Positions 29,016 through 54,822 of a DNA stretch of 64,000 nucleotides are shown here, piece by piece. The notes under the pieces were generated by a model, which did no database searches, was not told the origin of the DNA, and saw only the letters and a program-made list of their open reading frames with translations. Source of the stretch: Acidimicrobiaceae bacterium (GTDB lineage: Bacteria; Actinomycetota; Acidimicrobiia; Actinomarinales; Actinomarinaceae); contig JAOMBT010000002.1 in the NCBI GenBank assembly GCA_028344675.1, positions 830 to 64,829 on the forward strand. Direction: 5' to 3'. Position numbers and translations under genes: made by a program. Numbering within the stretch: position 1 is the first letter of the stretch; every line of letters begins with the position of its first letter.

Positions 29016-29018
29016 CTC

Positions 29019-31429: not shown

Positions 31430-31433
31430 AATA

Positions 31434-32114: not shown

Positions 32115-32115
32115 T

Positions 32116-32658: not shown

Positions 32659-33860
32659 AGTCGAAACAAGATAAGAAACATTTTTATCTTGTTTCAATAA
32701 TACATCTAATAATTTTTGTTCCTTTTGTTATACAAAAAACAATTGGTCCAGATTGGGATTCATACGCATTAATTGGGACTATTACAAACTTGTACAAAGA
32801 TTCTCTGTACTTGCCTTCTAGGCCGCCAGGTTTTCCTGTTTATGAATTTTTCTTAACAGGTCTTTACTCAATTTCAAATATTATAAATATAGAATTTGAA
32901 GTCGTTTTTATTTTAAGTCAGTATCTATTTGTTCTTGCTAACAACTATTTGATTTATAAATTTTTCCTAAAATTAGATTATAAAAATTATTTACTTTATT
33001 ACGTAGCCGTTTTATCACCTATATATTTAATTAGCGGCTTATCTATTATTGATTATCATGCAGGTTTATTGTTTGGGTTCTTAGGAATATTTTTAGCGCT
33101 CTACAAACCTCATTCAATATATTTTGTTTCTGTATTCTTAGCTATCTCTTCTGGTATTAGATTATCTAATCTTTTATTTTTTATTGTTGTTGTAGGTATA
33201 TTGCTTGGAAATAAAATTGAATTTAGAAGAATTGCTTACTTTTCCGCTGTCACTTTATTTTTATCTTTAGTAATTTACATTCCAGGATATATAAATTTAT
33301 GGGATTCATCTCTTTCAGGCAAGTTAACAAATTATTTTGATATCGTATGTGTTTTGAACTTGACCAACATAGACCATTCACTACTTGATCGTTTAGGAAG
33401 GTTTGTTTTGAAACAGTTAGATTTTTTAGGCATTGTAGGTTCTATTATTGTACTAATCTGCCTAACTAAGATTCGAAAAGAGAATATATACAATAATTAT
33501 TATTTCTTTATGATTTTTATTCTTTTTCAAATAAGTTTTTTAAGACTACCCACTGAAGAGGGCCATTTATTACCAGCTTTTATAGCATTCATTTTTATAT
33601 TAAATTCTTTGAAAATTAAAAATATGTTCTTAATGATTATTCTCATCTCTACATTATTAAGCAACTTCCTATTTATAAGCATTTATGATGTAGATACCCC
33701 AGATCAAGCTACTGAAATCTATTTTAATTTTGAATTAGAGCAAGGCCTACTTTTTAAAGACTTTGAAGCTAGAGAAAATATAGGTAAAGATAAAAAATAT
33801 CATTATGAAAATTCTTATTACTCAATTAAAGATGTTTGGAAAGACGGGTGTCCTAATTAA
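32655..33860 (+). CDS. Polytopic membrane protein, candidate GT-C-like glycosyltransferase
   Basis: 401 aa with ~11 helices. First-loop motif GPDWDSYALIGTITNLYK (DxDxYxxI). Confidence 0.3.
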   Translation: MKSKQDKKHFYLVSIIHLIIFVPFVIQKTIGPDWDSYALIGTITNLYKDSLYLPSRPPGFPVYEFFLTGLYSISNIINIEFEVVFILSQYLFVLANNYLIYKFFLKLDYKNYLLYYVAVLSPIYLISGLSIIDYHAGLLFGFLGIFLALYKPHSIYFVSVFLAISSGIRLSNLLFFIVVVGILLGNKIEFRRIAYFSAVTLFLSLVIYIPGYINLWDSSLSGKLTNYFDIVCVLNLTNIDHSLLDRLGRFVLKQLDFLGIVGSIIVLICLTKIRKENIYNNYYFFMIFILFQISFLRLPTEEGHLLPAFIAFIFILNSLKIKNMFLMIILISTLLSNFLFISIYDVDTPDQATEIYFNFELEQGLLFKDFEARENIGKDKKYHYENSYYSIKDVWKDGCPN

Positions 33861-33867
33861 TTAAGAA

Positions 33868-34353
33868 TTAGTTTGTATTGAAAAGTATTGAAATAAAATT
33901 TTGTAGAAGTACAAAATTTTTAATCCTTGAAGTTAATTTATATCCACCATCAACTTTTTCTATATATCCTGTGTAGAGCTGCTCTTCAATTCTCTTGTCT
34001 AAAAAAGTATCATTATTTGTAATTTTTTTTATTTCATTTCTTAGTTCATCCTTTGTTATTACGGTATCCACTACTTCTTGCGTAAGATTATTAAGTAAAC
34101 TTACAGATACAGACCTCTCATAACTAACAGGGAATAAAACAAAAAAACCAAAATTCATAGAGAAAACCATAACTATAATCATTAATGTATTGACTGCCTT
34201 TTTTCTTAACAAATAATAATTAAATAATGACGAAATAAGTAACAAATAAATTCCATCGAAGAAATAAATATTTGTAAATTTCAAGAAATCAAATTGAAGT
34301 AAAATGATAAAAAGAACGGTTGTGAAAGTGAATATTTTTATAAAATTTTTCAA
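33868..34353 (-). CDS. Membrane protein (3 TM helices plus a C-terminal soluble segment), unknown function
   Basis: Hydrophobicity only. Translationally coupled to the upstream large membrane protein. Confidence 0.3.
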   Translation of the reverse strand: MKNFIKIFTFTTVLFIILLQFDFLKFTNIYFFDGIYLLLISSLFNYYLLRKKAVNTLMIIVMVFSMNFGFFVLFPVSYERSVSVSLLNNLTQEVVDTVITKDELRNEIKKITNNDTFLDKRIEEQLYTGYIEKVDGGYKLTSRIKNFVLLQNFISILFNTN

Positions 34354-36338
34354 TTGAAAACCTTTACTTTTTTTAGTAATTTTCTAATTTGTTCATCATT
34401 GTAAAGATTATTTAAAGATAAAAAGCAAAGACCTATAATAATGTGTCTTGGATAGAAAAGTTCTGGATCATAAATTAGAAATGGGATAAGATTCAATAAA
34501 CCTAGAATATAGAAATCATTTTTTTGAAAAGTTCTACTCTTGAGTATTGATATTAAAAAATTTAAATTAGATAATAGAAAAATACTGAATCCTATATAAA
34601 TTATTTCTGGTCCAAGCGTCATCAATATTTTCTCATTAAAAGGGTTGATTATTATATAGTTTAAATTTTTTACGAGGTCAAAATCTAAATTTCTACCGTA
34701 GTTCCAACCAGTAGTAATCAATACAAATTCTTTTCCAAAATATAAATTATGAATTAATGGAAGTAAAAGAATTAAAAAGAAAGAAGCCCCTTTCTTAAAA
34801 GTTATATTTTGTCTGTAGAAAAATAATGTGCCTAATGCAAATAAACCAGTTTCTGGCCTAATGAGTACACCAAGTGCAAGAACGAAAACTCCTATTGTTA
34901 TTTTATTTTTTTTCAGCATGTAAATTGATATTAAAAATATCATTAGCGAACTTGCTTCAGACATTCCATATAGAAAAATATTTCTTACATTATCTGAAAT
35001 TAAAAATATTACAAAGAGAAAGGAGATAGGATTAATATTTTTTGAACATAGAAATATAAGGTTTACACACAATGAAAGCATGGCAATCCATACAACATTC
35101 CAAAAATCCCCAAAAATTAAATGAAGTGAGTAAAGAAAATATCTGTAGCCAGGAGAATATAAGAAAACACTTGACCCCCCTCTAAGTCCATCTCCTTCAA
35201 AAATTAGTCTTGCTTGATTTTCATATGTTAAGCTGTCAGATCCTCCAGGTTTAACAATTAAATCAAAAGTATTCCATGGATAGTCAATGATTATGAATGA
35301 AAGGAGTATGAAAATTTGTACGAAATTAAAGTAGGAGAATTTTGAATTGTTGAAATAGAGGTAGATTAAAAGTAAGCATAAGTAAGCGTAAATTTTTATA
35401 AATCTACTCTGGGAAATATCAAAATTGTAAATTAAAGACAAAACAAATGTCAATATAAACAAAAACAAATAATTTCTATTTATATTTCTCGTTATATTTT
35501 TTAAATTAAAAATAACGAATGCACAAATTACTATAAAGGAATAAAAATTAGTACTTACTCTCGAACCCCCGTCTTCTGTTATTACTAATTTGGCAAATTT
35601 TTCATAAGGGTAGCCACTTTTTAATGTTGGTATATGCTTAATTTTCCACTCAAGATAAGAATATTTAATCATTACATGAGTAGCATCTTTTGGTACGTCA
35701 ATAGTAACTGTATTTTCATTCCAATATCTAGTTGGTATCCCGTAGCCAGTTGAGCCATCATTAAATTTTACAGTTACTTCTCCTATGTAATTAATTTCTA
35801 ACTGGGAAGTATTTTTATCTAGCTCTTTGTAAAGTTTCATTTTAAAAGGAAGCCAATCTCGTCTCAGTTCATAAATATTAAATTTTGAGTGATTTAAAAA
35901 ACCTAAAGGAAAATTTGAAGAGTTAGCACCCAGCCATTGATAATTTTCATCAAGAGTTTTAAATTCAATTTTTTCAACTTTGTCGGTAAAAATTGAATTT
36001 AAATTGTTAAAACTTTTCGCACATGTTGAGTCGTAGTATTCATATGTAAAACTATTTTGGACAGGAGTTGAGCTGTCATCTACACAAATTAACCACAAAT
36101 TTGGTGTGCTAACTAAAAAAAATACTTTTACAAAAAATAAAATTGAAAAAAATAGATAACTTATTTTTAAATTTTTTTGTTCTATCTTGTAAATACATAA
36201 AACTAACAATAATAATAATAAAAATGAAGTTTTTGAATTATATGGGATTCCAGATAAATAACCTAAACCCTTGACTGGAAATACAACAATTATTAAAAAT
36301 AATAATTTATAAATCATATTTTTTTTTATAAAACTCAT
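34350..36338 (-). CDS. Large membrane protein: N-terminal ~280 aa extracytoplasmic domain plus a C-terminal polytopic domain related to the 36421/38120 paralogs; candidate GT-C glycosyltransferase
   Basis: 662 aa. The C-terminal half has GGSDSLTYENQARLIFEGDGLRGGSSVFLYSPGYRYF (DxxxYxxxARLI, cf. ArnT DEARYAEIAREM) followed by at least 8 helices. Confidence 0.35.
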   Translation of the reverse strand: MSFIKKNMIYKLLFLIIVVFPVKGLGYLSGIPYNSKTSFLLLLLLVLCIYKIEQKNLKISYLFFSILFFVKVFFLVSTPNLWLICVDDSSTPVQNSFTYEYYDSTCAKSFNNLNSIFTDKVEKIEFKTLDENYQWLGANSSNFPLGFLNHSKFNIYELRRDWLPFKMKLYKELDKNTSQLEINYIGEVTVKFNDGSTGYGIPTRYWNENTVTIDVPKDATHVMIKYSYLEWKIKHIPTLKSGYPYEKFAKLVITEDGGSRVSTNFYSFIVICAFVIFNLKNITRNINRNYLFLFILTFVLSLIYNFDISQSRFIKIYAYLCLLLIYLYFNNSKFSYFNFVQIFILLSFIIIDYPWNTFDLIVKPGGSDSLTYENQARLIFEGDGLRGGSSVFLYSPGYRYFLYSLHLIFGDFWNVVWIAMLSLCVNLIFLCSKNINPISFLFVIFLISDNVRNIFLYGMSEASSLMIFLISIYMLKKNKITIGVFVLALGVLIRPETGLFALGTLFFYRQNITFKKGASFFLILLLPLIHNLYFGKEFVLITTGWNYGRNLDFDLVKNLNYIIINPFNEKILMTLGPEIIYIGFSIFLLSNLNFLISILKSRTFQKNDFYILGLLNLIPFLIYDPELFYPRHIIIGLCFLSLNNLYNDEQIRKLLKKVKVFN

Positions 36339-36420
36339 TGAGTTAAAGCTATCCTTTATGTTGAAGTCATATTATATAAATTTATAGTAATGCAAATAAA
36401 AAAATTTTTGAGGAAAGTAC

Positions 36421-38097
36421 GTGGTAATAAATAAATTTAAAGTTTTTTCAATTTTTTATTTTTTTTCTTCATTAATTTTTACTTTTAGTATTGGTGAAAT
36501 TTTTTATAACTCAATTGATGGAACTGATTTCTATCGTTATTTTCGATATATTGAATATTTTAAGGGGTCGATAGAAACTACGTCTAGAGAACAAGGTTTA
36601 TTTTATTTTTGGTTTATATCATTATTTATTGACTTCTACGATCAGTATTATATTGCCGATAAATGGGAGTTTATATACAGCTCTGCTATTCAGATGGGAA
36701 ATTTTATTTTATATTTAATTGGATTATTAGGTTTATTTATTTTTCTAAAAACCAAAAAGATAAATACGACAAAAATTTTTATTTCCCTATCCTTTTTAAA
36801 CTTTTTCCCACCTGTATTTGGTGCGAGGTTAATAATGAAACCTGAGATGCTTGCATTTGCAATATTTCCCTGGATTTTGATAGGTTTAGATAAATACTTT
36901 TTAAACAAAGAAATTTCACACCTTCTGAGTGTTGTCCCACTATTGGCAATTATTGCAACAAGTAAAGGAACAGTTTTTATTTTAATAGCTTCATCACTTC
37001 TATTTATTTACTTCAACAAGATTAGAAAACTGAAATTTTTCGATATTGGAATTGCCATTACAATTTTTACAATAATGTCATACTTTCTATATCAAGAAAA
37101 TCTAAATGCTAATTCTGTAAGCATGCTTTCTCATCCAGAACTAGAGTCATATCGATATAAAGCAAGCTTTTCATTTATTTATACCCTCAGTATTAGCGAT
37201 TTATTTTTAAAACCTTTTAGGAATGTTCACGCAGGGTCTCTTTTTGGAATTACCTTTATAGATTTATTCGGGGATTACTTTAATCGGTATTGGGATCATG
37301 AAAGAAGTTTATTTATTTCTAATAGAAGAGAGGTGGTTTCATTTTTAGATTATCCAAGACGAAACATCTCAGTAATTTTTTCAATTGTATTTTTTATATC
37401 AACTTTCATAAAAGGAAAATCATTTAAGCACTCTCCATACACTAAAGTCTATTTAGTTGGTATAGCAATACTTTTATTAACATCACTTGGGGTATTTGGT
37501 CTTCACTTTAATCCAAACAAAGGAGATACAGTAAAAACACATTACTACTTCTTTTTACTAGCTTTTTCATTCATATTTATAGTTATAAAATTTTTGAATG
37601 AAACAAAACAAAAAACACATGTAATTTTTCTTATTTTTATCTTCCTAGCTTTTTCATTTATAGTTGGCTTTCCTAAAAACTATGAAGCTGATTTTAACGA
37701 GACACTGAGTGAAAAAATTTCTACAACATTAAGTTGTCGTTTCGTCAGTTCTTATTTTGAGAATATTAAAGATCTTGATATTAAGTGCTTAACAAAACAG
37801 CTTGCTACTTGTGGCTCATTCAATCAATACAATAAACCAATTGAACACGAGGATGGGTACCTAATATTTCAGGCAGATGAATTTTTTCAAAACGTTAATT
37901 TACAAGACACTGATGGAAATACGGTAACAGTTACAGGATATGCAGAATGTTTACATTATCTTGAAGGAGGGTATTTCAAAAATCAATCAGTTGATTATGT
38001 GGATAGGACACCTCCGGTCAATAGATTATTTTTGTATTTAGCCATGCTTAGTATTTTTTACATACTTTATAACAGTAGAAATAGTTTCAAAAAATAA
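36421..38097 (+). CDS. Polytopic membrane protein, paralog A (candidate GT-C-fold glycosyltransferase)
   Basis: Shares four motif blocks with 38120..39445. They are DGTDFYRYFRYIEYFKG...TSREQGLFYFW, LNFFPPVFGARLIMKPEMLAF, FGITFIDLFGDYFNRYWDHERSLF and NPNKGDTVKTHYY. There are also ~150 aa of extra C-terminal extracytoplasmic sequence. Confidence 0.4.
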   Translation: MVINKFKVFSIFYFFSSLIFTFSIGEIFYNSIDGTDFYRYFRYIEYFKGSIETTSREQGLFYFWFISLFIDFYDQYYIADKWEFIYSSAIQMGNFILYLIGLLGLFIFLKTKKINTTKIFISLSFLNFFPPVFGARLIMKPEMLAFAIFPWILIGLDKYFLNKEISHLLSVVPLLAIIATSKGTVFILIASSLLFIYFNKIRKLKFFDIGIAITIFTIMSYFLYQENLNANSVSMLSHPELESYRYKASFSFIYTLSISDLFLKPFRNVHAGSLFGITFIDLFGDYFNRYWDHERSLFISNRREVVSFLDYPRRNISVIFSIVFFISTFIKGKSFKHSPYTKVYLVGIAILLLTSLGVFGLHFNPNKGDTVKTHYYFFLLAFSFIFIVIKFLNETKQKTHVIFLIFIFLAFSFIVGFPKNYEADFNETLSEKISTTLSCRFVSSYFENIKDLDIKCLTKQLATCGSFNQYNKPIEHEDGYLIFQADEFFQNVNLQDTDGNTVTVTGYAECLHYLEGGYFKNQSVDYVDRTPPVNRLFLYLAMLSIFYILYNSRNSFKK

Positions 38098-38119
38098 AAT
38101 ATTTTAAGTATTTTCAAAT

Positions 38120-39445
38120 CTAAATTAATAAATTATAAAAGTATGATAATTGGCTAAATACTGCAGTTTTTAAATCAATATTAAATGACCATGGAAACCC
38201 AAAGATAAATATAATAATCAAAAAGTAAAGTGCAAACACTGAGTAATTAAAAACAGGCTTTCTCTTTTGAATTAATTCAATCAGTATAAAAATAAATGAC
38301 AAGGCTAATAAATGTGAATAATAATGAGTTTTAAGGGTATCTCCCTTATCAGGGTTAAAATATGTTCCAAAAAACCCATATGCCGTTAATAATATTAAAA
38401 ATATTCCAAGAAAATATGATCTTGAATATAATTTAAACTTCTTACCTTTGCTTGCAAACAATGAAAGAATAATAAATGTTAAAGAAACTAATATAGATAC
38501 ATATCTACGAACCAAATTTAAATCATAATTACTTGATTCGATACGATTTTTAAAAAAAAGACTTCGACCATGGTCCCAGTATCTTTCAAAATAGTCTCCA
38601 AATAAATCTATCAACGTTATTCCAAAAAATGAATTTCTCATATTATCTCTAAATGGGTTATTAATTAATTGATTTAGATCAAAGTTATAAATTAAACTAA
38701 AGGTAGCTTTATAGTTGTATTGTTCTACTAGTTCATGATATAAAAAGCCCACGTTATTTATTTTGTAGTCATTATAAAAAATTAATAAACATAAAACTAA
38801 AGAAGGAATAATAAAATAAATTAGGTGCATTACATCAAATTCTTTAATTTTAGGAAGAAATTTTAATATTAGAAGTAAGCTTAAAGAAGCTGTAATAAAG
38901 GCTTTGGCTGTAAAACTTAATAAAATTAATGGAATTAGATAGATAAGTTTAAGAAGTTTCTTTGATTCCAGATAAGTTTCTAAAAAGTAAATAATCCAAG
39001 GAAGAAGTGAAAAAGCCAATATTTCTGGTTTCATTATTAACCTTGCTCCAAATATTGGTGGAAAAAAGTTTAAAAAAGCTAAAACCATATAGATATCTTC
39101 ACTTTGAAACTTATAAAACCTTAGTAGCTTAAAAAAACCGAATGCTCCAAACAAATAATAAATTGTATTTGAAATTTGAATTGATATATTAATTAGCGAT
39201 TGAAAGTCAGGTAAATTAGATAATACTGATCCTATCTCTGCAACTTTATATACTGTCCAAAAATAAAAAACCCCTTGTTCTCTGGAAGTATATTCAGCAT
39301 TACCCAAAAAATATTCAATATATCTGTAGTACCTATTAAAGTCCGTCCCATTAGTAGAGTCATAAAATGTCAAACCTAAAATTATTGAAAATAATAAAGA
39401 AGAGCTAAAAATAAATTGTGAAACTCGAGTTCGGTTTTTTTTCAT
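38120..39445 (-). CDS. Polytopic membrane protein, paralog B (candidate GT-C-fold glycosyltransferase)
   Basis: Has NGTDFNRYYRYIEYFLG...TSREQGVFYFW, LNFFPPIFGARLIMKPEILAF, FGITLIDLFGDYFERYWDHGRSLF and NPDKGDTLKTHYY. Convergent with paralog A. Confidence 0.4.
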   Translation of the reverse strand: MKKNRTRVSQFIFSSSLLFSIILGLTFYDSTNGTDFNRYYRYIEYFLGNAEYTSREQGVFYFWTVYKVAEIGSVLSNLPDFQSLINISIQISNTIYYLFGAFGFFKLLRFYKFQSEDIYMVLAFLNFFPPIFGARLIMKPEILAFSLLPWIIYFLETYLESKKLLKLIYLIPLILLSFTAKAFITASLSLLLILKFLPKIKEFDVMHLIYFIIPSLVLCLLIFYNDYKINNVGFLYHELVEQYNYKATFSLIYNFDLNQLINNPFRDNMRNSFFGITLIDLFGDYFERYWDHGRSLFFKNRIESSNYDLNLVRRYVSILVSLTFIILSLFASKGKKFKLYSRSYFLGIFLILLTAYGFFGTYFNPDKGDTLKTHYYSHLLALSFIFILIELIQKRKPVFNYSVFALYFLIIIFIFGFPWSFNIDLKTAVFSQLSYFYNLLI

Positions 39446-40260
39446 ATTATTACAATCTATATGTGATATTAATTACTAAATTAAAGATATTCATCGCAAA
39501 ATATTTGTTAATTTTCATAAGTTTTTTTAAAAATATAGACATCAATGAATTCACCCGTAAGGGGATAAAGTGGCACACTCCTCTTAATGATATCGTAGGT
39601 TTAAGTCTGTATCTTTTAGGAAGTTTTGAAAAGCATAATGTTAAAAAAGTAAGTAAGTACATAAACAATGGGACAACTGTAATCGATATTGGAGCAAATA
39701 TTGGCACATTTACCATTGGTCTTTTAAAAAGATGCCCAGAAAAGATTGAAAAAATAATTTCCTATGAACCTGAAAAAAAGAACTATAAGAATCTCAAGAA
39801 AAATATAAAAGAGAACAACCTGGAGTCAAAATCAGAAGCCTTCAACAAGTTTGTAGGGCTTGGCAACGTAGATAAAATAACAAGCAACTATCCTCTCATA
39901 CATAAAGGACCTAAGGTTCAAAATATTTACTATGGGCTAAAGGGAGACTATAAAGGTGTTCAATCTAGTAATTTGGATGAGATTAATTTCGATGCAAATA
40001 AAAATTATTTTATAAAAATAGATGTTGACGGATACGAAGCTGAAGTCATGTCAGTAATAAATAAAAAGTTAAAGTTTCGACCGACTATTTTAATTGAAGT
40101 TAATAAAGTATTGTTGGATGAAATAGAAGTAGAATATTTAGTAGAAGTGTTTGAAAAAAATAATTACAAATTTGTTTATTTTGGTAAACAACTTTCACCA
40201 AAAATTATATTAAATGATTTTCGAAAAATTGGATTAGATTTGATAGCAGTTCCTGTTTAA
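39418..40260 (+). CDS. FkbM-family methyltransferase
   Basis: VIDIGANIGTFTIGLLKRC (the DxGAN.G SAM motif) and NYFIKIDVDGYEAEVM (the IKIDVEG motif). Confidence 0.75.
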   Translation: MKLEFGFFSYYYNLYVILITKLKIFIAKYLLIFISFFKNIDINEFTRKGIKWHTPLNDIVGLSLYLLGSFEKHNVKKVSKYINNGTTVIDIGANIGTFTIGLLKRCPEKIEKIISYEPEKKNYKNLKKNIKENNLESKSEAFNKFVGLGNVDKITSNYPLIHKGPKVQNIYYGLKGDYKGVQSSNLDEINFDANKNYFIKIDVDGYEAEVMSVINKKLKFRPTILIEVNKVLLDEIEVEYLVEVFEKNNYKFVYFGKQLSPKIILNDFRKIGLDLIAVPV

Positions 40261-40311
40261 AAATTTAATAATTGTTTACGTATATATAACATGATTAATA
40301 TGGAAGTTATT

Positions 40312-42387
40312 ATGAAAGTTTTTAGATATATATTATTTATTTTCATTGTTTCATGTGGCAATAATAATGAAAGTGGACTAACAGTTGTCTCCACTTCATT
40401 ACCACCTGCAATTGACACACCCTCTACTTCATTGTCAACTACAACAACTTCAGTAACCACAACCACAGTTGTAACTTATGATGGCTGTATCCCCGAGGAC
40501 AATCAGAGTGTTAATTTTAATGATTTAAAGAATGTTCAAAATTTTCTTAATAGATATGGATTTGATGCTGGAACTGAGGATGGCCTATCAGGCAACCAGA
40601 CTCGAGAGGCTGTTAAAAGATTTCAAGCATACGTTGGCATCACAATAGATGGAGATTTGGGACCAACAACATATGGAAAAATGAATTCATACACTGGTTG
40701 TGAGGAAAGAATAAATGAGTATACTTCCTCTCCTACTTCAACTACTTCAACAACTATTATCAGTGAAGAGAATACAACCGAGTCAACTACTACAACAACT
40801 ACTACAATCCCCGTAACAACTACTACAACAGTGATAGCTACCACCTATGATTATGGATTTCAAGGCATGGTTTCTCCTGAAAGTGGGAACTTCGCTGATA
40901 TTTTAACTACTCAAAATGAAAACAACACCTTTTGTTCAAACATAGCACCGTTGTACGGTGAACAAAATCAACGAACTGATCTCGGTTTCCCTAGTATTTA
41001 TAACCTATACCCATCTCCACCATCTCTAACTTCGGGTGTTTCAACACAGATATCTTCGAATACTTCCTCAACATTCACAGTTGAAGTTAACGGAAATGGG
41101 GATGAAAATTTTAAGTTTTATTTTATTGAACCCTTTACTTCTTCATACAAAACTTTAGATCCAATAAGTATTTCAACCAGTAGTGGACTTACTAAGGCAA
41201 CTTTTAATAAAGATGGCCTGACTCAGGGTTATTGGTTCTACGGATATGCTGATAATGGTTCTGGGGGAATAGTTAAAGCCGATGGTTTACGAGAATTTTT
41301 AGCTGGACCTCCAATAGTTCAAAATGATGTAAATATTAGTTCTTTTGATAATGTTTGGCTTCACACCTCAGAAAATTTGATAAGTAACGGTGAATTTGTT
41401 GCAAATAATTCTGAAATGTATATTACTTATATTATGGATACAGGATTCAATTCATTTTCAACAGTATCTAACGAAATAAATACAACAACAACCTCAATAA
41501 CAGTTGTAAGTGATAGTAGTTATGCAGTTGGTGATATTGTATTACTTGATAACGAATTTATGTTAATTCAAGAGATTTCTAATCAGACTCTTACCGTTGA
41601 AAGAGGATATCGTAACTCTCTACAACAAATTCATGGTATCGGAACCGCTGTGCAGAAATTAATTACAGACACAGATATGAAAGCCGTGAGAGGTTATGCA
41701 CTTTTTAAAGGTGAGAAAGGATATAGTTTTTCAGTTTCACTTGGCAAGGAAGGTGTGCCAAATAAGTTTACAATATCTGACTCCTGTCCAAAAGATTTAT
41801 ATTCACTTGATTTTATAAAAGTTTATTCATGGAGAGAAAAGGGTGAATCAACAGCAAGATCTATTGATGCTGGTAGAGGTGATGTAAATATCGCTAATGA
41901 TAAATTTACTTTATATCAAGGGATTCAGGATTATATATTTCCCGACATATTTGCTTCAGATCCAAGTAATGGTCAGTTTTTAAATCTCGGACCTAGGGAA
42001 GCAACTTACTCTGCAGGAGATACAATTAGCTTTGATTTTGCTGGAATAGTCTCTGGAAGTAATGAAATTAAATATATTGAATTAGAATTCGACATGTTCC
42101 CTACTGGTTCAAAAGCAACAGCTTCAAGAAAAATTATTTTTACTCCAAATAATAATGAATATAAGTACACCTCATCCATCTCTTCAGTATCTTCGACACC
42201 AATATTTACTAACAATGTGTGGGAAAGTGGATATAGGTATGTTTTAAAGCATGTAAAGATAAATGATGGTGTATCTGAATTAATATTTAAAAATAATAGT
42301 GAATTAGAAAATGTAACGCTCGGAACCAAATCAACTCACAGTGTTTATTATCTTGACCAGTTTGCTTTTACAATCAGCAACAATTAA
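40312..42387 (+). CDS. Thr/Ser-rich lipoprotein with a peptidoglycan-binding (PG_binding_1) domain and a large C-terminal domain of unknown function
   Basis: The MKVFRYILFIFIVSCG signal carries a lipobox (IVS-C). LQNFLNRYGFDAGTEDGLSGNQTREAVKRFQAYVGITIDGDLGPTTYGKM is the PG_binding_1 consensus. It is flanked by SSPTSTTSTTII...TTESTTTTTTTIPVTTTTTVIATT linkers. The track start 40291 is probably over-extended. Confidence 0.6.
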   Translation: MKVFRYILFIFIVSCGNNNESGLTVVSTSLPPAIDTPSTSLSTTTTSVTTTTVVTYDGCIPEDNQSVNFNDLKNVQNFLNRYGFDAGTEDGLSGNQTREAVKRFQAYVGITIDGDLGPTTYGKMNSYTGCEERINEYTSSPTSTTSTTIISEENTTESTTTTTTTIPVTTTTTVIATTYDYGFQGMVSPESGNFADILTTQNENNTFCSNIAPLYGEQNQRTDLGFPSIYNLYPSPPSLTSGVSTQISSNTSSTFTVEVNGNGDENFKFYFIEPFTSSYKTLDPISISTSSGLTKATFNKDGLTQGYWFYGYADNGSGGIVKADGLREFLAGPPIVQNDVNISSFDNVWLHTSENLISNGEFVANNSEMYITYIMDTGFNSFSTVSNEINTTTTSITVVSDSSYAVGDIVLLDNEFMLIQEISNQTLTVERGYRNSLQQIHGIGTAVQKLITDTDMKAVRGYALFKGEKGYSFSVSLGKEGVPNKFTISDSCPKDLYSLDFIKVYSWREKGESTARSIDAGRGDVNIANDKFTLYQGIQDYIFPDIFASDPSNGQFLNLGPREATYSAGDTISFDFAGIVSGSNEIKYIELEFDMFPTGSKATASRKIIFTPNNNEYKYTSSISSVSSTPIFTNNVWESGYRYVLKHVKINDGVSELIFKNNSELENVTLGTKSTHSVYYLDQFAFTISNN

Positions 42388-42447
42388 AAGTTATCAGAGA
42401 GAATCTAAACTTTTAAATAATTTGTACGTTTTATGTGCGTTTGAGCT

Positions 42448-42623
42448 TTATGGCCCTCCAGGTAATGACTCACAAGGCTCACCGTCATTATCTCCATCTA
42501 GATTTGCAACATCTCCATAGTATGGAAAATAAGTATCGAACCAATTTTTAGCTTCTGAATAGTTAGCAAAGTCTCCACAATTTTTTGTATCTCCAATAGA
42601 AAGAATGACTTTAATGTTAGATA
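42448..42623 (-). pseudogene. Excalibur (extracellular calcium-binding) domain fragment without a canonical start
   Basis: The minus-strand translation ...SIGDTKNCGDFANYSEAKNWFDTYFPYYGDVANLDGDNDGEPCESLPGGP* contains the Excalibur DxDxDGxxCE motif and the CxDF start. The frame opens right after a TAA and has no ATG/GTG/TTG. Confidence 0.35.
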
Positions 42624-42779
42624 ATTATGGAGTAGATATGGTTTATCACGACATCATATCAATATTAATTTTTTCAACTGTCATCTATTTAGTTTATAGG
42701 CTTTACAAAAGGTTTTAATTTTTCTACAAAATGTGGGCTTGAGTGGTTTTTTGTAGGGTATATTTCTGAAAAACCCTTG

Positions 42780-42853
42780 TGGGCGCTACAGGATTTGAAC
42801 CTGTGACTTCTTCCTTGTAAGGGAAGCGCTCTGCCGGACTGAGCTAAGCGCCC
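42780..42853 (-). tRNA. tRNA-Val (anticodon TAC)
   Basis: The reverse complement is GGGCGCT-TA-GCTC-AGTCCGGC-AGAGC-G-CTTCC-CTTACAA-GGAAG-AAGTC-ACAGG-TTCAAAT-CCTGT-AGCGCCC-A. No CCA (followed by CAA). Confidence 0.85.
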
Positions 42854-42901: not shown

Positions 42902-44332
42902 TTAATTATTTGAAACTTCTTCGTGATATTCGCCATCAATATTAACTTCCCAAGGATCAAAATTTCCATGACCCATTAGAGTCCTAGCGGCATACAACCC
43001 AGTTGCCATTGCGTGATCTTGATTATTATATTTAAACATTCCAGACCTTCCAATTGCAGTTATGTTTGGTAGTGACGAAAGCCATTCTTTAATAATATCA
43101 ATATGAACTTGATAACCTGTTTTAATGACAGGGTAAGCTTTGGGGCTTCTACTAATTGCAGAGTGGACTACATTAAATTCAACATCAAAAATACTTTTGA
43201 GTTCTTTTAACCCGTATTCAATTATTTCGTTATTTGGTTTATTCCATATTTCATCATTTTCGAAACAAAAGTATTCAAGAGTTAAGGGGTAGTTGCCTTC
43301 AACACTCATTTCTTCTGAAAAGTTAGTAAAGTCGGCAATCCTTGCCATAGTTACATTTGGTGAATGAATATATATCCAGTTGTCATCAAAGAGTTTTTTA
43401 TCAACAGTTATATGAACACTTATATGATTTCTATAATTTAAACTTTTTGCCGAATCTATAACCTCTTGTGGAACACTACCATCAAAGATATCTATAAACT
43501 CCAAAAGAGGATTACTAAAAAATATATTTTTTGCTTCTTCAGATTTTTCATTACCTTCACTGTCTTTAAAAGAAACAATGAAACCTTTATCTGTAGTTGT
43601 TACATCAGTTACAGTTTTTTCTTTTGAAACTTCTATATTCTTTTTTGTCACAATTTCTTCAAATTTCTCCCACAGCATCCCAGCACCCAGCTTTGGATAG
43701 TAAAACTTATCAACTAAAGTTTTTGGTCTCTTTTTACTGTTTGGAAATAAAGCAAACTTAATTGCAGTTGATAAACTTAGACCTTTTATTCTTTGTGCTG
43801 CCCAATCTGAGCCAATATCCTTACAATCTATACCCCAAACTTTTTCTGTGTAATTTTTAAAGAAATTATTAAAAAGCTTTCTCCCAAACCTATCAACAAC
43901 CCAGTCTTCAAAATTGTTAATCTTTGTAATACGAAGATAGCTTTTTAGTCTTGCAATTATATAGGAAAAACCAATTGTAATAGACTCAAAAACTCCTAAA
44001 CCAAATAAAGCATTCAGTGGAGTCAGAGGATAATCAAAGTAGCTATTTTTAAAGAGTATTCTGGTTTTTCTTTTTACTGCAACTGCATCATCATCAAGCA
44101 CTTTAAGGAATAAATCATAGACTTCTTTATTTTTAGTAAAAAACCTATGGGGACCTATGTCATATCTATAATCTCCATAGACTTTTGTTTCAGCAAGGCC
44201 TCCAACTCGAGGTTTTTTTTCAAGTATGAGTACTTTTTTACCAGAATCTGAAAGTTCATATGCTGCAGTTAGGCCAGCAGGTCCTGCTCCAATAATTATT
44301 ACGTCGTACATAATTCCTAATCTACCACTCAA
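42902..44332 (-). CDS. FAD-dependent oxidoreductase (amine-oxidase / UDP-galactopyranose-mutase-like Rossmann family)
   Basis: YDVIIIGAGPAGLTAAYELSDSGKKVLILEKKPRVGGL (GxGxxG FAD dinucleotide-binding motif) and IGPHRFFTKNKEV (cf. Glf GPHIFHT). 476 aa. The specific substrate is unknown. Confidence 0.55.
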   Translation of the reverse strand: MSGRLGIMYDVIIIGAGPAGLTAAYELSDSGKKVLILEKKPRVGGLAETKVYGDYRYDIGPHRFFTKNKEVYDLFLKVLDDDAVAVKRKTRILFKNSYFDYPLTPLNALFGLGVFESITIGFSYIIARLKSYLRITKINNFEDWVVDRFGRKLFNNFFKNYTEKVWGIDCKDIGSDWAAQRIKGLSLSTAIKFALFPNSKKRPKTLVDKFYYPKLGAGMLWEKFEEIVTKKNIEVSKEKTVTDVTTTDKGFIVSFKDSEGNEKSEEAKNIFFSNPLLEFIDIFDGSVPQEVIDSAKSLNYRNHISVHITVDKKLFDDNWIYIHSPNVTMARIADFTNFSEEMSVEGNYPLTLEYFCFENDEIWNKPNNEIIEYGLKELKSIFDVEFNVVHSAISRSPKAYPVIKTGYQVHIDIIKEWLSSLPNITAIGRSGMFKYNNQDHAMATGLYAARTLMGHGNFDPWEVNIDGEYHEEVSNN

Positions 44333-44594
44333 TAGTAAGGTTCAAATCTGACTTAATGATAGCAGAACAAGGGAGGACCTCATTTTTACCAATGTAAGCT
44401 ACAGGTTCATAAGTGTATTCAACTTCACCTTCATTCATAATAGTTCTACATGTACCACAGTGTGCCTCTTGGCACTCATATTCAATTTCGTAACCATTTT
44501 TTTCAAGAACACGAAGTAGATTTTCATTTTTATTACAAACGATTTCTGTTGAGTCGTTAACTTTGACAGTTACTTTTGTTTCATCGGACTTCAT
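44322..44594 (-). CDS. 2Fe-2S ferredoxin
   Basis: CQEAHCGTCRT (Cx4Cx2C) and a later LPCSAI give the plant/adrenodoxin-type four-Cys pattern. 90 aa. Confidence 0.7.
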   Translation of the reverse strand: MKSDETKVTVKVNDSTEIVCNKNENLLRVLEKNGYEIEYECQEAHCGTCRTIMNEGEVEYTYEPVAYIGKNEVLPCSAIIKSDLNLTIEW

Positions 44595-44599
44595 GCAAT

Positions 44600-45730
44600 T
44601 TAAAGCTCGAAGTCTCCTAAGTCTTCAACGTTAACTTCACTATCAACTTGTCCAACTAAATAGGAGCTTATCTCTACTTCTTGTGGCGCTACTTGAACTG
44701 TGTCACTAGCTAACCAGGTCTTCATCCAAGGAATAGGATTCTTTGTTATATTGAAGATTGGATCAATTCCAACAGCTTTTACCCTTACATCAGTAATATA
44801 TTCTACATATTGACACAAGATTTCCTTATTTAGTCCAAGCATGGAGCCATCTTTAAATAAGTACTCAGCCCATTCTTTTTCTTGTTCTGCACCCTCTTTG
44901 AACATATCAGCCGCATCTTGTTTACATTCTTCAGCAATCTCTGCCATTTCGGGATCATCTTGACCTGTTCTTATAAGATTAATCATGTGTTGTGTGCTTG
45001 AGAGATGTAATTGTTCGTCACGTGCAATTAGTTTTATGATTTTTGCATTTCCCTCCATTAAGCCTCGTTCAGCAAAAGCAAAACTACATGCGAAACTCAC
45101 GTAAAATCTTATTGCCTCAAGTACATTTACAGACATCAAACACATATATAGCTTTCTTTTTAAATCATGCATATTGATATCAAGCTCACCAACATCTGTT
45201 TTGTGCACACCCTCACCATGAAGGTTATATGCTTGCTGATAGTTAATTAAGTCGTCATAGTATCGAGATGTGTACTCTGCTCTTTCGACAATATCTTTGT
45301 TTCCGACAATATCATCAAAAATCAAGGATGGATCATTAGTAATATTCCTGATTATATGTGTATAGCTTCTGCTGTGAATAGTCTCACTAAAAGCCCATGT
45401 TTCTATCCATGTCTCAAGCTCAGGAAGTGAAACTAATGGTAGTAAAGCTACATTGGGTGACCTTCCCTGGATGCTATCAAGAAGTGTTTGGTACTTAAGA
45501 TTACTAATAAAGATGTGTCTTTCATGATCAGACATTTTGCCATAATCAATTCGATCTTTTGATACGTCTATTTCCTCTGGTCTCCAGAAAAAACTTAATT
45601 GTTTTTCAATTAGTTTTTCGAAGATTTCAAATTTTTGTTGGTCGTATCTTGCAACATTTACTGGATTGCCAAAGAACATTGGTTCTTTGAGTGCATCATT
45701 TTTTTCTTGGCTAAATGTAGAATATGCCAT
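44600..45730 (-). CDS. nrdB: Ribonucleotide reductase class Ia beta subunit
   Basis: [39 protein letters not shown] is the di-iron/tyrosyl radical R2 signature. 376 aa. Confidence 0.9.
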
Positions 45731-45745
45731 TATTTCCTCGCTTTC

Positions 45746-48253
45746 TTATATTTTACAAGAATCTCCACAATCATCTGGATCTTCTTGTATGTAATCTACC
45801 GCTCCATATTTATCTGAAGTTGTTGAATAAGTATCTGATTGATCCTCATTGGTAGAAATCTCTTCTGTTGTCTCTACAACCTTCTGTTCAGCTTCTACTT
45901 CTTTTTCTGCTTGTGCATCGGTAGAACCATCTCTTGTATTGTGGTAGTAGAGTGTTTTAATACCTAATTTATAGGTTGTTAAAATATCTTGAATCATTTT
46001 TTGGAGTGGTAATTTTCCATCTTCAAATTTGCTAGGATCATAATTTGTATTAGCAGAGATAGTTTGATCAACAAACTTCTGCATAATTGCTACTAATTCT
46101 AGGTACCCTTTGTTGTCTGGAATATTCCATAACAATTCGTACTTATCTTTCAACTCTTCAAAATCCGGGACAACTTGTTTCATAATTCCATCTTTACTCT
46201 GCTTGACTGAGACATAACCTCTTGGTGGCTCTATTCCATTTGTAGCATTACTGATTTGAGCCGAGGTTTCTGCAGGCATAAGAGCAGTTAGTGTACTGTT
46301 TCTTAGTCCGTGTTCTTTAATGTCGGTCCTGAGCTGCTCCCAATCTAAGTGAAGTTTTTCATCACATATATCATCTACATCTTTTTTGTAGGTATCTATT
46401 GGCAAGAGCCCTTTTGCATAGTTTGTTTCGTGGAATAGTTCACATGCTCCTTGTTCTTTTGCTAGTTCGTTGGAAGCTTTCAGTAAGTAGTACTGGATAG
46501 ATTCAAAGAGTTTATGTGTTAGATTATTTGCTGAACCATCAGAATACTTAACATCATTTTTTGCTAAATAGTACGCATAGTTTATCACTCCAACTCCAAG
46601 GGTTCTCCTTCTTTTTCCAGAATTAATTGCAGCTGGAACTGGATAATCTTGATAGCTTAATAAGCCGTCTAGTGCCCTAACTATTAATTCGGCTGTATCT
46701 TCTAAGTCCTCTAAATCTTCAATTACCCCAAGATTAAATGCAGATAAAGTACATAGTGCTATTTCACCATCTGGATCGTCGACATTACTGAGTGGTTTAG
46801 TAGGAAGAGCTATTTCAAGGCATAGGTTACTTTGTCTAATTGGAGCGACAGATGGATCAAATGCTCCATGGGTATTACAATGGTCAACATTTTGAAGATA
46901 GATTCTTCCAGTACTCGCTCTTTCATTCATAAATAATGAAAAAAGTTCAACGGCTTTAATTGTTTTCCTTCTTATGTCTGGATCTGCTTCATAAATTTCG
47001 TACAGTTCTTGAAACTTATCTTGGTCTTCAAAAAATGCGTCATAAAGCCCTGGGACATCGGAGGGGCTAAACAGACTAATATCTTCATTTTTTATGAGTC
47101 TTTCGTACATTGTTTTATTAAATTGAACACCGTAGTCAATATGTCTAACTCTATTTTCTTCAACCCCACGGTTGTTTTTTAATACTAATAAATCTTCAAC
47201 TTCGTAATGCCAAAGGGGATAAAACAAAGTGGCAGCTCCTCCTCGTACTCCTCCTTGTGAACAACTTTTAACTGCTGATTGAAAATGCTTGTAGAACGGT
47301 ATGCATCCAGTGTGAAACGCTTCACCATTACGTATAGGGCTACCTATTGCCCTTATTCTTCCTGCATTAATTCCTATTCCCGCTCTTTGGCTTACATAAC
47401 GTACAATTGCCCCTGATGTGGCATTAATTGAATCCAAAGAATCACTAGTTTCAATTAAAACACAGGAGCTAAATTGACGTGTTGGAGTCCTGACTCCAGA
47501 CATAATAGGTGTTGGTAGAGAAAGCTTGAATGTTGATGCAGCATTGTAGAATCTCTCAACATAATCAAGTCTTGTTTCTTTTGGATATTTAGAAAAAAGA
47601 CAAGCACCCACAAGAAGAAAAATGAATTGGGGACTTTCGTAAACATCTCCATTTACTCTATTTTGTACAAGATACTTTCCTTCGAGCTGTTTTACTGCAG
47701 CATAAGTAAATTTCATATCACGCCAGTGATCTATGAATCCATCCATAGTTGAAAATTCGTCTTCGGTATAATCTGTTAATAGCTCAGGATCATACCTTCC
47801 TTCACTAACCATTTTTGTGACCTGTTCATACAGAGAAGGTGGTTTAAACTGCCCATAAGCTTTTTTTCTTAAATGAAATATTAATAGTCTTGCAGCAAGG
47901 TATTGATAATCAGGGGATTCAGTTGAAATAAGATCAGCTGCTGCTTTTATCATAGTTTCGTGAATTTCTTCAGTTGTAATACCGTCATAGAATTGGATTT
48001 GTGAATTTAGCTCCACTTGAGAAGGGGATACATCTAGATCTTCAGATGCCCAAAAAATTACTCTGTGAATTTTTTCTAAATCTATTGGCTCCTGCTTACC
48101 ATTCCTTTTCGTAATAAAAATAGTGTTTTTGGGATCCTCAAGATTAATTTCTTCTTGTTCTACTACTTCTTCTTTGCTTACACTTGTCTTTTCCACTTCG
48201 CTCCTTAACCCTGTTTCTTCTTCCACTTCTACTCCCATTTGCAAATAAACCAA
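45746..48253 (-). CDS. nrdA: Ribonucleotide reductase class Ia alpha subunit
   Basis: ATP-cone IFITKRNGKQEPIDLEKIHRVIFWASE. Catalytic NLCLEIALP / SCVLIE region. C-terminal CGDSCKI redox tail. The ~45 aa acidic N-terminal extension suggests the true start may be the internal Met at 48238. Confidence 0.9.
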   Translation of the reverse strand: MVYLQMGVEVEEETGLRSEVEKTSVSKEEVVEQEEINLEDPKNTIFITKRNGKQEPIDLEKIHRVIFWASEDLDVSPSQVELNSQIQFYDGITTEEIHETMIKAAADLISTESPDYQYLAARLLIFHLRKKAYGQFKPPSLYEQVTKMVSEGRYDPELLTDYTEDEFSTMDGFIDHWRDMKFTYAAVKQLEGKYLVQNRVNGDVYESPQFIFLLVGACLFSKYPKETRLDYVERFYNAASTFKLSLPTPIMSGVRTPTRQFSSCVLIETSDSLDSINATSGAIVRYVSQRAGIGINAGRIRAIGSPIRNGEAFHTGCIPFYKHFQSAVKSCSQGGVRGGAATLFYPLWHYEVEDLLVLKNNRGVEENRVRHIDYGVQFNKTMYERLIKNEDISLFSPSDVPGLYDAFFEDQDKFQELYEIYEADPDIRRKTIKAVELFSLFMNERASTGRIYLQNVDHCNTHGAFDPSVAPIRQSNLCLEIALPTKPLSNVDDPDGEIALCTLSAFNLGVIEDLEDLEDTAELIVRALDGLLSYQDYPVPAAINSGKRRRTLGVGVINYAYYLAKNDVKYSDGSANNLTHKLFESIQYYLLKASNELAKEQGACELFHETNYAKGLLPIDTYKKDVDDICDEKLHLDWEQLRTDIKEHGLRNSTLTALMPAETSAQISNATNGIEPPRGYVSVKQSKDGIMKQVVPDFEELKDKYELLWNIPDNKGYLELVAIMQKFVDQTISANTNYDPSKFEDGKLPLQKMIQDILTTYKLGIKTLYYHNTRDGSTDAQAEKEVEAEQKVVETTEEISTNEDQSDTYSTTSDKYGAVDYIQEDPDDCGDSCKI

Positions 48254-48426
48254 TTATAGGAATTGCACTTGGATCACTCCTGATTTATATTTGTGGTGTT
48301 ATTGGCCTGATACTAATTATCAATACATCAGTATCAAATGCAATCACTATAGGTGTTGTGCCGTTCATAATTGGTGATGTTATTAAATCCATAATGGCAG
48401 TAGCGGTAGCGTACAGACTGAAATAA
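48184..48426 (+). pseudogene. bioY: bioY (biotin ECF transporter S component) 3' remnant; only the last ~55-60 residues are homologous
   Basis: TSVSNAITIGVVPFIIGDVIKSIMAVAVAYRLK matches the BioY C-terminal consensus (...AaGvlPFlpGDliKavlAallap...). The upstream frame closes at 48145 and is antisense to the nrdA start. TTG start only. A full BioY needs ~110 more N-terminal codons, which would lie inside nrdA. Confidence 0.45.
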
Positions 48427-48428
48427 TT

Positions 48429-50126
48429 ATGAGTCAAAAAAGAATCCTTATCGCTAACCGTGGTGAAATTGCATTACGAATAATAAGATCTGCAAAAGAA
48501 ATGGATCTATATACCATAGCTGTTTTCTCAGATGCAGATGAGGATTCACTTCACGTAAAAAGAGCGGATGAGTCATACTATCTTGGCAGTTCCCTACCAG
48601 CTGATAGTTATAGAAATTTAAAAAAACTGGTAAAAGCTGCTGTAGATACAAAAGCAGACTTAGTGCATCCTGGATATGGTTTTCTTGCAGAAAATGCAGA
48701 GTTTGCCAAGGCTATTGAGAAGAAGGGTATATCGTGGATAGGCCCTAAACCAGAAACTATTAAATCCATGGGTGACAAAATAGAATCAAGAAAGTTAGTT
48801 ACAAAAATTGGATTGAATCCTGTTCCAGGTCAATTAAAACCTTCCCGTCTCAAAAGAGAGGCGGTAAAAGATGCAGAGAGTTTTGGTTACCCAGTTGCAT
48901 TAAAAGCAGCGCATGGTGGTGGAGGAAAAGGGCTGCGAATTGTCCATAATGAAAAGGAGTTGCTTGAAAATTTTGAGATTGTAAGAAGAGAAAGTGAAGC
49001 TTATTTTGGATCTGATCAAATCTACGTAGAGAAATTTATAAAACCAGCTCGACACGTAGAAACTCAGATTCTTGCTGATAAACATGGTAATGTTCTTTAT
49101 CTAGGTGAGAGGGACTGTTCCCTCCAGAGAAGAAATCAAAAACTTATAGAGGAAAGTCCTCCTGCATGGCTTTCAGATTATGGAAGAGAGAAATTAAAAG
49201 AATACACTTTAAAGATTGCCTCTAACTCTGCATATATAAATGCAGGGACTGTTGAATTTTTAGCTGATAGTGATGAAAATTTTTATTTCTTAGAAATGAA
49301 TACAAGACTTCAAGTAGAACATACTGTCACAGAGATGAGGTATGGTCTTGATTTAGTAAAAGAGCAGATAAAGATTGCCCTTGGACATTCTATAAAAGAC
49401 TATGAACTAGAAGCGCGAGGTCACAGTATTGAATTCAGAATAAATGCTGAAGACCCATCAAATAATTTCTTACCAACTCCAGGAACTATAACTGAATATA
49501 GAGAGCCAACAGGAAACGGTGTACGGGTTGACGGCTGGGCAAGAACAGGAACTCAGATTACTCATTTCTACGACAATTTAATCTCAAAATTAATTGTATG
49601 GGGAGTTTCGAGGGAAGAAGCTCGGTCAAAAGGAATTAGATGTTTAGAGGAGTATGTGATAGGGGGAATACCTACGACTATTAATGTGTTAGCTGATATT
49701 TTAAAAACTAAAGAGTTTATTAACAGCCAGATTCATGTTAAGTTTCTTGAGGAAAATTTTGAAATTAGAGAACTTGAAGAGGACGAAGTTAGTTCTGATA
49801 GGCCAAGTAAAGTAAATATTTCTCTTGAAGATTCTTCAAACCCTACTTTGGCACCACAAAGACCAAAAAAAATTGGAATGGATTTAACAGGGAATATTAA
49901 AAATCCTGGACTCATTTTTGCAGAAATGCAGGGAACTATTATGGAGACCATGACAAAGCAAGGGAAAAAAGTGAAAAAAGGTGACTCCTTATTTGTTCTA
50001 GAAGCAATGAAAATGGAAAATGTAATTACTTCACCAATTAATGGGGTAATAAAAGTATTTAATGTCACAAAAGCTCAAGCTGTAAAAAAAGGAGATCTTC
50101 TTGTTGAAATAGAAGTAAAATTCTAA
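48429..50126 (+). CDS. accC: Biotin carboxylase with C-terminal biotin carboxyl carrier domain (AccC-AccB fusion; acetyl/acyl-CoA carboxylase alpha)
   Basis: N-terminal ILIANRGEIALRIIRSAKEM. ATP-grasp GGGGKGLRIV. C-terminal biotinyl domain EAMKMENVITSPINGVIK. 565 aa, with no BT domain between the two. Confidence 0.85.
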   Translation: MSQKRILIANRGEIALRIIRSAKEMDLYTIAVFSDADEDSLHVKRADESYYLGSSLPADSYRNLKKLVKAAVDTKADLVHPGYGFLAENAEFAKAIEKKGISWIGPKPETIKSMGDKIESRKLVTKIGLNPVPGQLKPSRLKREAVKDAESFGYPVALKAAHGGGGKGLRIVHNEKELLENFEIVRRESEAYFGSDQIYVEKFIKPARHVETQILADKHGNVLYLGERDCSLQRRNQKLIEESPPAWLSDYGREKLKEYTLKIASNSAYINAGTVEFLADSDENFYFLEMNTRLQVEHTVTEMRYGLDLVKEQIKIALGHSIKDYELEARGHSIEFRINAEDPSNNFLPTPGTITEYREPTGNGVRVDGWARTGTQITHFYDNLISKLIVWGVSREEARSKGIRCLEEYVIGGIPTTINVLADILKTKEFINSQIHVKFLEENFEIRELEEDEVSSDRPSKVNISLEDSSNPTLAPQRPKKIGMDLTGNIKNPGLIFAEMQGTIMETMTKQGKKVKKGDSLFVLEAMKMENVITSPINGVIKVFNVTKAQAVKKGDLLVEIEVKF

Positions 50127-54736: not shown

Positions 54737-54822
54737 GATTTCAATTACTTTAGATTTAATAATCATTAAAAATATTTACTAGAATTAAGTTTTAGAGAGA
54801 ATTAGAAATAAAGTCGTCTTTT

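Follow-up and report, generated by a model that had tools for sequence, protein, structure and literature searches.

The locus described here raises the question of how the end of bioY, a biotin transporter gene, came to lie against the start of nrdA, which encodes the alpha subunit of a class Ia ribonucleotide reductase (RNR). It is found in a 64-kb stretch of Actinomarina DNA, here called the window, and all coordinates are window positions. The bioY piece (48238-48426, plus strand) is a non-functional 3' remnant, and no working bioY is possible at this locus. We are highly confident that it is a dead remnant lying at a microhomology junction private to this sequence. As to what made the junction, a very recent, strain-private illegitimate recombination in vivo has in our view about an even chance. 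A chimeric artefact, left out by the initial annotation of this DNA, is a serious possibility because no other assembly shows the junction.

The bioY remnant

The fragment comprises codons 118-179 and the TAA stop of bioY, i.e., the C-terminal third, as identified by the Pfam profile PF02632, tblastn and an alignment with the BioY of L. lactis (4DVE). The plus-strand frame that carries it is open from 48148 to the stop codon at 48424-48426, and from its first start codon, a TTG at 48184, it gives an open reading frame (ORF) of 80 aa. In the Pfam profile searches used for all domain calls, residues 20-79 of this ORF match positions 79-138 of the 140 in PF02632 at 47.9 bits (E 1.7e-12; cut-off 25 bits), whereas the intact 179-aa orthologue covers positions 1-138 at 129 bits. 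The intact orthologue aligns with residues 20-187 of 4DVE, and the fragment with residues 116-187. A tblastn search with intact Actinomarina BioY matched the window with residues 118-179 only (48238-48423; 98 % to the BioY of contig L099), and residues 1-117 had no match anywhere in the 64-kb window. Additionally, the fragment is identical at 189/189 nt to the matching part of intact bioY in contigs L102 and L106, which puts its identity as BioY far beyond chance and means that the event has no measurable age.

Upstream of the fragment, none of the three plus-strand frames contains anything BioY-like. The open-frame extension at 48148-48237 (plus strand, including the TTG at 48184) shows no BioY similarity in translation, and its 30 codons are the antisense shadow of the Glu-rich nrdA codons 1-30. 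The extension is open because GAA and GAG read in reverse as TTC and CTC and hence give no stops. The initial annotation had described the locus in these terms, as a BioY 3' remnant without a functional bioY whose upstream frame runs antisense to the acidic N-terminal end of nrdA, and the partial profile coverage and the Glu-codon shadow bear this out.

Compared with the known biotin S component of the energy-coupling factor transporters (PF02632; 4DVE), residues 118-179 are true BioY, and here too bioY stands directly upstream of a biotin-dependent carboxylase gene. However, the window piece has no first 117 residues, start codon or promoter, so it makes no transporter. As homology begins at codon 118, both an own start and the native upstream expression signals, i.e., co-transcription with pccB, are absent; pccB and its promoter region are likewise absent from the window. 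The feature is thus a known kind of thing, a dead gene fragment rather than a new gene.

Anatomy of the junction

The comparison set consisted of 17 related contigs that carry bioY, 11 of them conspecific (98.8-99.4 % identity, from 11 assemblies) and 6 more distant, and the region upstream of nrdA was compared with contigs L085, L086 and L119. Alignments place the join at a microhomology, ATTTGCAAATAAA (48237-48249), of which the window has a single copy. Where native bioY reads ATTTGCAAATAAA, the native leader of nrdA reads ATTTACAACTAAA, with 11/13 bases in common, and the crossover lies within ATTT (48237-48240), an exact common run of 4 nt. Contigs from the bioY side align from 48237 (48237 or 48238), and those from the nrdA side align up to 48249. 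On the plus strand the window reads ...CTTCTACTCCC ATTTGCAAATAAA CCAATTATAGG... at the join, the native nrdA leader ...CTTCTTCTCCC ATTTACAACTAAA TATTGTATG... and native bioY ...AATAGGGAG ATTTGCAAATAAA CCAATTATAGG...; the native continuation is ...CTCCCATTTACAACTAAATATTGTATG on the nrdA side and ...AATAGGGAGATTTGCAAATAAACC on the bioY side. For random site pairs from the two parental loci, a match of 11/13 has a probability of about 4e-5. Therefore, the join is homology-guided and not a blunt concatenation, and the microhomology exceeds chance as in a scar of illegitimate recombination. Microhomology of such size is typical for illegitimate recombination in bacteria. The junction resembles known bacterial remnants of this short-homology type in that the break lies in a gene, that 4 exact nt stand within an imperfect microhomology of 13 nt, and that no mobile-element sequence is present. 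It is unlike them in that neither the reciprocal junction nor relocated partner genes have been seen, and in that the junction is found in no other sample.

The break joins bioY between codons 117 and 118. On the nrdA side it takes away the whole native promoter region and keeps a GGGAG (48235-48231), the ATG (48238) and a GTG (48226). The GGGAG (48231-48235, minus strand) lies just inside the junction, is conserved in L085, L086 and L119, and is the putative Shine-Dalgarno sequence of nrdA. Since nrdA fills the space where bioY codons 1-117 would need to be, a downstream nrdA start could in principle make room for an intact bioY, as the initial annotation had considered. The sole plausible one, the GTG at 48226, is preceded by the GGGAG, is plausibly the true nrdA start and would free 12 nt only.

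An exact TATAAT (48253-48258, minus strand), derived from the bioY codons Pro-Ile-Ile-Gly, stands 15 nt upstream of the nrdA ATG as a candidate fortuitous -10 element. It is the sole exact copy on either strand of 48100-48500, where the background is 4.8e-4 per nt. This TATAAT, read from 48258 to 48253, may serve as the new -10 element of nrdA. A consensus promoter scan gave no more matches than in shuffled sequence.

A substitution is found at 48231, 6 nt from the junction, where the window reads GGGAGTAG and the three native contigs GGGAGAAG or GGGAGAAA. In nrdA it turns codon 3 from a Glu into a Val codon; if the GTG is the start, it alters the spacer between Shine-Dalgarno sequence and start. 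It may simply reflect variation between strains or may have arisen in the joining event.

The two parental loci

The junction is private to the window sequence, and both parental arrangements are intact in conspecifics. On the left side, ten contigs found through the ferredoxin gene (L109-L118) match the window at 93-99 % identity (9/10 at 97 % or more) over the covered parts of nrdA, nrdB, the ferredoxin gene, the oxidoreductase gene and tRNA-Val, and the exact ferredoxin protein occurs on 15 other contigs with the same gene order. L085, L086 and L119 (12 kb) have 95-97 % nt identity to the window nrdA, and an 830-aa nrdA orthologue is called in L119. Upstream of native nrdA, L085 and L119 carry a spacer of 110 nt (L085 1863-1972; L119 3630-3739), a gene for a conserved 248-aa membrane protein, and then acetyltransferase or glycosyltransferase genes; L086 retains just 23 nt of the leader. 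The spacer holds a promoter-like TTGAAA-17-TATAGT, overlapped by a near-consensus NrdR-box-like palindrome, ACACTACATTTAGTGT. The promoter-like site, the palindrome and the 248-aa gene are all missing from the window. Judged by its gene neighbours, the nrd block sits at its own native site.

On the right side, the biotin and fatty-acid genes show an equally stable order. Looking up the exact acyl carrier protein (ACP) of the window gave 10 contigs from 10 assemblies, 9 of which are 99.2-99.4 % identical over 5.8-15 kb. In 8/9 of these, at 99.2-99.4 % identity, the order is InoP, a 696-aa oxidoreductase, birA, pccB, bioY (179 aa), accA, acpS, fabD, fabH, fabG, acpP and fabF, and the ninth (L103) ends within the gene upstream of birA and has birA onward. 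The same order is found, as far as each contig extends, in L087 and L084 (98.8-99.0 %) and in the more distant L001, L088, L089 and L105. The accA region is colinear with L099-L108 at 99.2-99.4 %, and L004 has a pccB-like carboxyltransferase gene, bioY (179 aa), the fused gene for biotin carboxylase (BC) and biotin carboxyl carrier protein (BCCP), and acpS. Overall, pccB, full bioY and accA are present in every related contig that reaches the region (17), and birA and the fab genes in those long enough. This agrees with the initial annotation, which took a bioY next to the carboxylase gene for ancestral; from gene order in relatives, bioY beside the BC-BCCP gene is the ancestral arrangement.

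By these comparisons the junction fuses two separately native loci, each minus its native inner flank. In their native context the two parental loci are >13 kb apart. For a simple deletion between adjacent loci, the 8.4 kb nrdA-side flank (L119) and the 5 kb bioY-side flank (L099) share nothing, and adjacency is not demonstrated.

Origin of the junction

In the recombination in vivo that we favour, a single microhomology-guided join would have fused the nrdA leader to bioY inside ATTT. The accA-fab block would have been inverted or translocated, with the junction marking one endpoint. A plain inversion would leave bioY codons 1-117 fused to ATTTACAACTAAATATTG elsewhere. Possibly, the breakpoint carries a second copy of the 189-bp bioY end, which would leave an intact pccB-bioY elsewhere and reconcile the junction with viability. 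The 190 bp of remnant are now all that separates the divergent nrdA and accA, and the promoters of both would need to lie in them. The retention of the nrdA ORF and its GGGAG, together with the TATAAT upstream, looks like a rearrangement filtered by selection, whereas a blind artefact would need both by luck. Gene order in Actinomarina changes often, with a within-species adjacency Jaccard of 0.73, and illegitimate recombination has been proposed as a cause because repeats are scarce (10.64898/2026.04.03.716425). We also count the polymorphism at 54791, another within-species structural difference, and the accuracy of the assembly for an origin in vivo. A fuller proposal holds that the junction is real, that joins on 4-13 nt of microhomology drive gene-order shuffling in Actinomarina, that captured bioY DNA gives the essential RNR operon its -10 element, and that bioY was kept through a duplicated breakpoint or biotin is imported without BioY; taken as a whole, we would rate this somewhat below an even bet. 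If real, the junction offers a clean, datable case of gene-order change in a repeat-poor 1.1-Mb genome, a rearrangement with zero decay caught in a free-living organism whose genome is among the most streamlined. The case would then bear on the mechanism of such change, which the 2026 Actinomarina preprint raised and left open (10.64898/2026.04.03.716425). The biotin supply of the strain would also need explaining, the genus being auxotrophic and otherwise always having BioY.

Several results weigh against recombination in vivo. The junction pattern has 0 matches in JGI metagenome contigs and 0 in viral contigs, where the reciprocal pattern also has 0, and 0/11 conspecific contigs carry it. 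No protein that crosses the junction is present in the protein database. In the sequences searched, neither an independent sample nor a reciprocal junction attests a scar formed in vivo. Actinomarina lacks BioB, and BioY is found in 84/84 complete genomes (10.64898/2026.04.03.716425); the cell should therefore not survive a simple inversion or deletion here unless an extra assumption is made, either the duplicated breakpoint or another importer. Moreover, nrdA and the accA-fab operon are both stripped of their native promoters, and accA is parted from pccB and birA. Identity to metagenome contigs is 95-99 % for the left flank and 99.2-99.4 % for the right, as two source strains could also explain. 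An undecayed remnant would be expected of an artefact just as much, and the argument from TATAAT is post hoc.

Most of these points are at home in the opposite explanation, that the junction arose as a chimera, in vitro or in silico, and that the real genome keeps the native birA-pccB-bioY-accA and nrdA loci and has no remnant. This could have come about by a polymerase template switch during single-cell whole-genome amplification, or by contig tips joined on a short imperfect overlap with chimeric read pairs, and we regard it as a real prospect, if one that falls short of even odds. The junction was unique to the window in every search, the two parental arrangements are both intact in conspecific contigs, the fragment has not decayed at all, and the flanks differ in identity to metagenome contigs. 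In a biotin auxotroph the arrangement also looks physiologically implausible, with bioY cut, pccB and birA gone from the locus and both operons cut off from their promoters. A 64-kb contig that is accurate to the level of substitutions and runs through a hypervariable region would fit a single-cell assembly, and odd joins occur in the same bioY stretch in other assemblies (L003, at 48251, and L120). Of the chimeras formed in multiple displacement amplification (MDA), >70 % start at 2-21 nt of complementarity, and there is about one for every 10-22 kb of product (PMC1855051). The window junction is like these MDA junctions (Lasken and Stockwell 2007, PMC1855051) in being private to one assembly, in its short complementarity and in the intact parental sequences. 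It is unlike them in that the loci are >13 kb apart, and of the chimeras between segments >10 kb apart only about 30 % have complementarity (PMC1855051). The exact run of 4 nt is in turn too short for a k-mer or de Bruijn misjoin. Furthermore, the break spares the nrdA ORF and Shine-Dalgarno sequence and sets a perfect TATAAT upstream, which a function-blind process rarely would (roughly 0.05 x 0.014, reckoned post hoc). If the junction is a chimera, neither a loss of bioY nor an unusual divergent promoter between nrdA and accA should be annotated for this genome, and the contig needs splitting at 48237-48249.

Three further explanations have to be weighed, and each is very improbable. The initial annotation had proposed a rearrangement junction into bioY, by which the nrdAB-ferredoxin-oxidoreductase block, or all of the segment up to tRNA-Val, was inserted or rearranged. 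In the insertion model, a mobile or transferred segment would have split bioY. The junction itself is confirmed by the loss of homology at 48237, and the operon does look horizontally acquired at some time, as its NrdA is 70-76 % identical to gammaproteobacterial NrdA with just two closer relatives; in addition, tRNA-Val borders a variable island. The insertion part does not stand, and we give it very little credence. An insertion would leave the bioY 5' part, pccB and birA beyond the nrd block, but tblastn found none of them in the window. In ten other contigs the neighbours to the left of the block are the same, in L085 and L119 the block has its own, different right neighbours, and the junction falls at the nrdA start codon rather than at an element end. 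Another proposal, that the 80-aa TTG ORF is a real small membrane protein, a mini-BioY or half of a split BioY, is about as improbable. Its frame is intact, its 18 extra N-terminal residues are hydrophobic, and its translation could keep up the coupling to accA, which starts 2 nt past the stop. However, no homologue shares its N-terminus, the extra codons are the antisense shadow of Glu codons, the TTG has no Shine-Dalgarno sequence ahead of it, and only the C-terminal third of BioY is present. An intact frame is uninformative at zero divergence, and the window encodes no N-terminal half. Among the 10 database matches to the ORF, the entries of 117 and 132 aa are full genes cut by contig ends or adapters, and the 'BioY' entries of 83 and 86 aa (L120 and L003) sit on odd short scaffolds and have unrelated N-termini and upstream DNA. 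A BioY family of about 80 aa is thus absent from the relatives, whose complete orthologues have 179 aa. Finally, the junction could be one state of a programmed site-specific inversion, or an att site in bioY, with the perfect 10-bp palindrome ATTTGCAAAT at the breakpoint as its core, and gene 3' ends are classic att sites that get duplicated. We consider this the most far-fetched of the three. None of the 17 related loci shows the state with the junction, the site upstream of nrdA that would be its partner matches at 11/13 only, and palindromes of 10 bp are common in DNA of 35 % GC. There is no att duplication, i.e., no intact bioY at another end within the window, and the nrd block is in its native left context. 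No recombinase was identified beside the junction, the whole window not having been screened for recombinases.

Some other candidates were tried and set aside. The palindrome ATTTGCAAAT as a recombinase core was rejected as too common and unsupported. The 86-aa 'BioY' of L003 might have been a second truncation; we treat it as a chimeric scaffold, with an upstream part of 30 % GC against 35 %, a NamZ gene, and a join on the common ATTATAGGAATTGCACTTGG. Its upstream N-terminus is presumably LolE-like. An inversion within the window was rejected as well, as the 698-aa and 280-aa genes at 39.4-42.4 kb encode a PG_binding domain protein and an FkbM methyltransferase and are unrelated to the 696-aa and InoP genes that flank birA. 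An origin of the left 48 kb from another organism was rejected since GC and tetranucleotide usage shift at about 40 kb and not at the junction.

The nrd operon and its surroundings

The nrdA gene (45746-48238, minus strand, with its ATG at 48238) encodes 830 aa with ATP-cone, Ribonuc_red_lgN and Ribonuc_red_lgC domains. It is followed by nrdB for the RNR small subunit (44600-45730, minus strand; Ribonuc_red_sm), a gene for a YfaE-like 2Fe-2S ferredoxin (44322-44594, minus strand; Fer2) and one for an oxidoreductase of the flavin adenine dinucleotide (FAD) amine-oxidase type (42902-44332, minus strand; Amino_oxidase and NAD_binding_8). With ATP-cone, all-alpha and barrel domains in NrdA, and with NrdB and the Fer2 protein encoded next, the operon is that of a class Ia RNR.

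The order nrdA, nrdB and small Fer2 protein is that of the E. coli-type nrdAB-yfaE operon, and NrdA is 70-76 % identical to gammaproteobacterial proteins. In contrast to that operon, the host here is actinobacterial, NrdA is extended by acidic stretches at both termini, an FAD oxidoreductase gene comes next, and the window nrdA is without the native promoter and the NrdR-box-like palindrome. The extensions, the N-terminal one of about 40 aa, are unusual. The identity of 70-76 % was found for the first 259 residues with proteins of Aeromonas, Alteromonas and Vibrio. Among 5.8 billion proteins searched, only two relatives, encoded on L085 and L086, are closer, at 97-98 %, and the rest are at 76 % or less and mostly gammaproteobacterial. 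This distribution looks like a horizontal acquisition of the RNR operon by a narrow Actinomarina lineage.

The conserved nrd block ends at tRNA-Val(TAC) (42779-42853, minus strand; tRNA calls were made with ARAGORN), which is also the edge of a variable island. L109 and L110, the sole two contigs that extend past tRNA-Val, diverge from the window at 42776. The island (29015-42776), bounded by tRNA-Val, encodes an FkbM methyltransferase and a peptidoglycan-binding protein. In L109 the genes past tRNA-Val differ for just 3.8 kb, after which the contig rejoins the window at a homologue (72 %) of the gene at 27981-29015.

Further to the left, the tRNA genes for Phe, Asp, Lys and Arg at 20.4-26.8 kb and the low GC match the right boundary of the Actinomarina hypervariable region (10.64898/2026.04.03.716425). 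The GC content is 26-30 % in 1-40000 and 33-37 % in 40000-64000, and tetranucleotide usage shifts likewise.

The biotin and fatty-acid cluster

The accA gene (48429-50126, plus strand) encodes the acyl-CoA carboxylase alpha subunit, a biotin carboxylase fused to BCCP (Biotin_carb_N, CPSase_L_D2, Biotin_carb_C and Biotin_lipoyl). Only 2 nt separate its start from the bioY stop, and no Shine-Dalgarno sequence of its own precedes it, which suggests that its translation is coupled to bioY.

In Actinomarina, birA, the carboxyltransferase, the biotin transporter, the BC-BCCP subunit, acpS and the whole type II fatty-acid synthesis set form one compact cluster (L099 2445-11487 and equivalents). Just past fabF, at window position 54791, lies a within-species structural polymorphism. 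L102, L103 and L104, which are 99.2-99.4 % identical to the window up to 54791, next have a gene for 648 aa or more (the complete copies, in L102 and L103, encode 1314 aa), whereas the window has adh_short, pyruvate phosphate dikinase, isocitrate lyase and malate synthase genes. At the same position L105 has ~4.4 kb of additional genes.

Relatives of the window in public data

In a scan of genome contigs with AccA, the closest genome match was the Candidatus Actinomarina single-cell assembly L004, the sole close relative; the other 79 loci were unrelated biotin carboxylases. Look-ups of the exact AccA, NrdA and NrdB proteins of the window returned no record. The window differs from its conspecifics by substitutions and almost no indels, and its assembly is therefore accurate.

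Nextera adapter sequence is found at the ends of several public metagenome contigs in the comparison, among them L001 (1-77), L084 (1-60) and L085 (3' end), and adapter-derived peptide artefacts ('MCIRDR...' and '...VSYTHLTLPTILLV') appear in public contigs. L002, with a coverage of 2x and 33 odd terminal bases that match nothing, was set aside. Other public contigs look like chimeric scaffolds joined within bioY, with L003 (1-1509) and L120 (1-200) among those listed.

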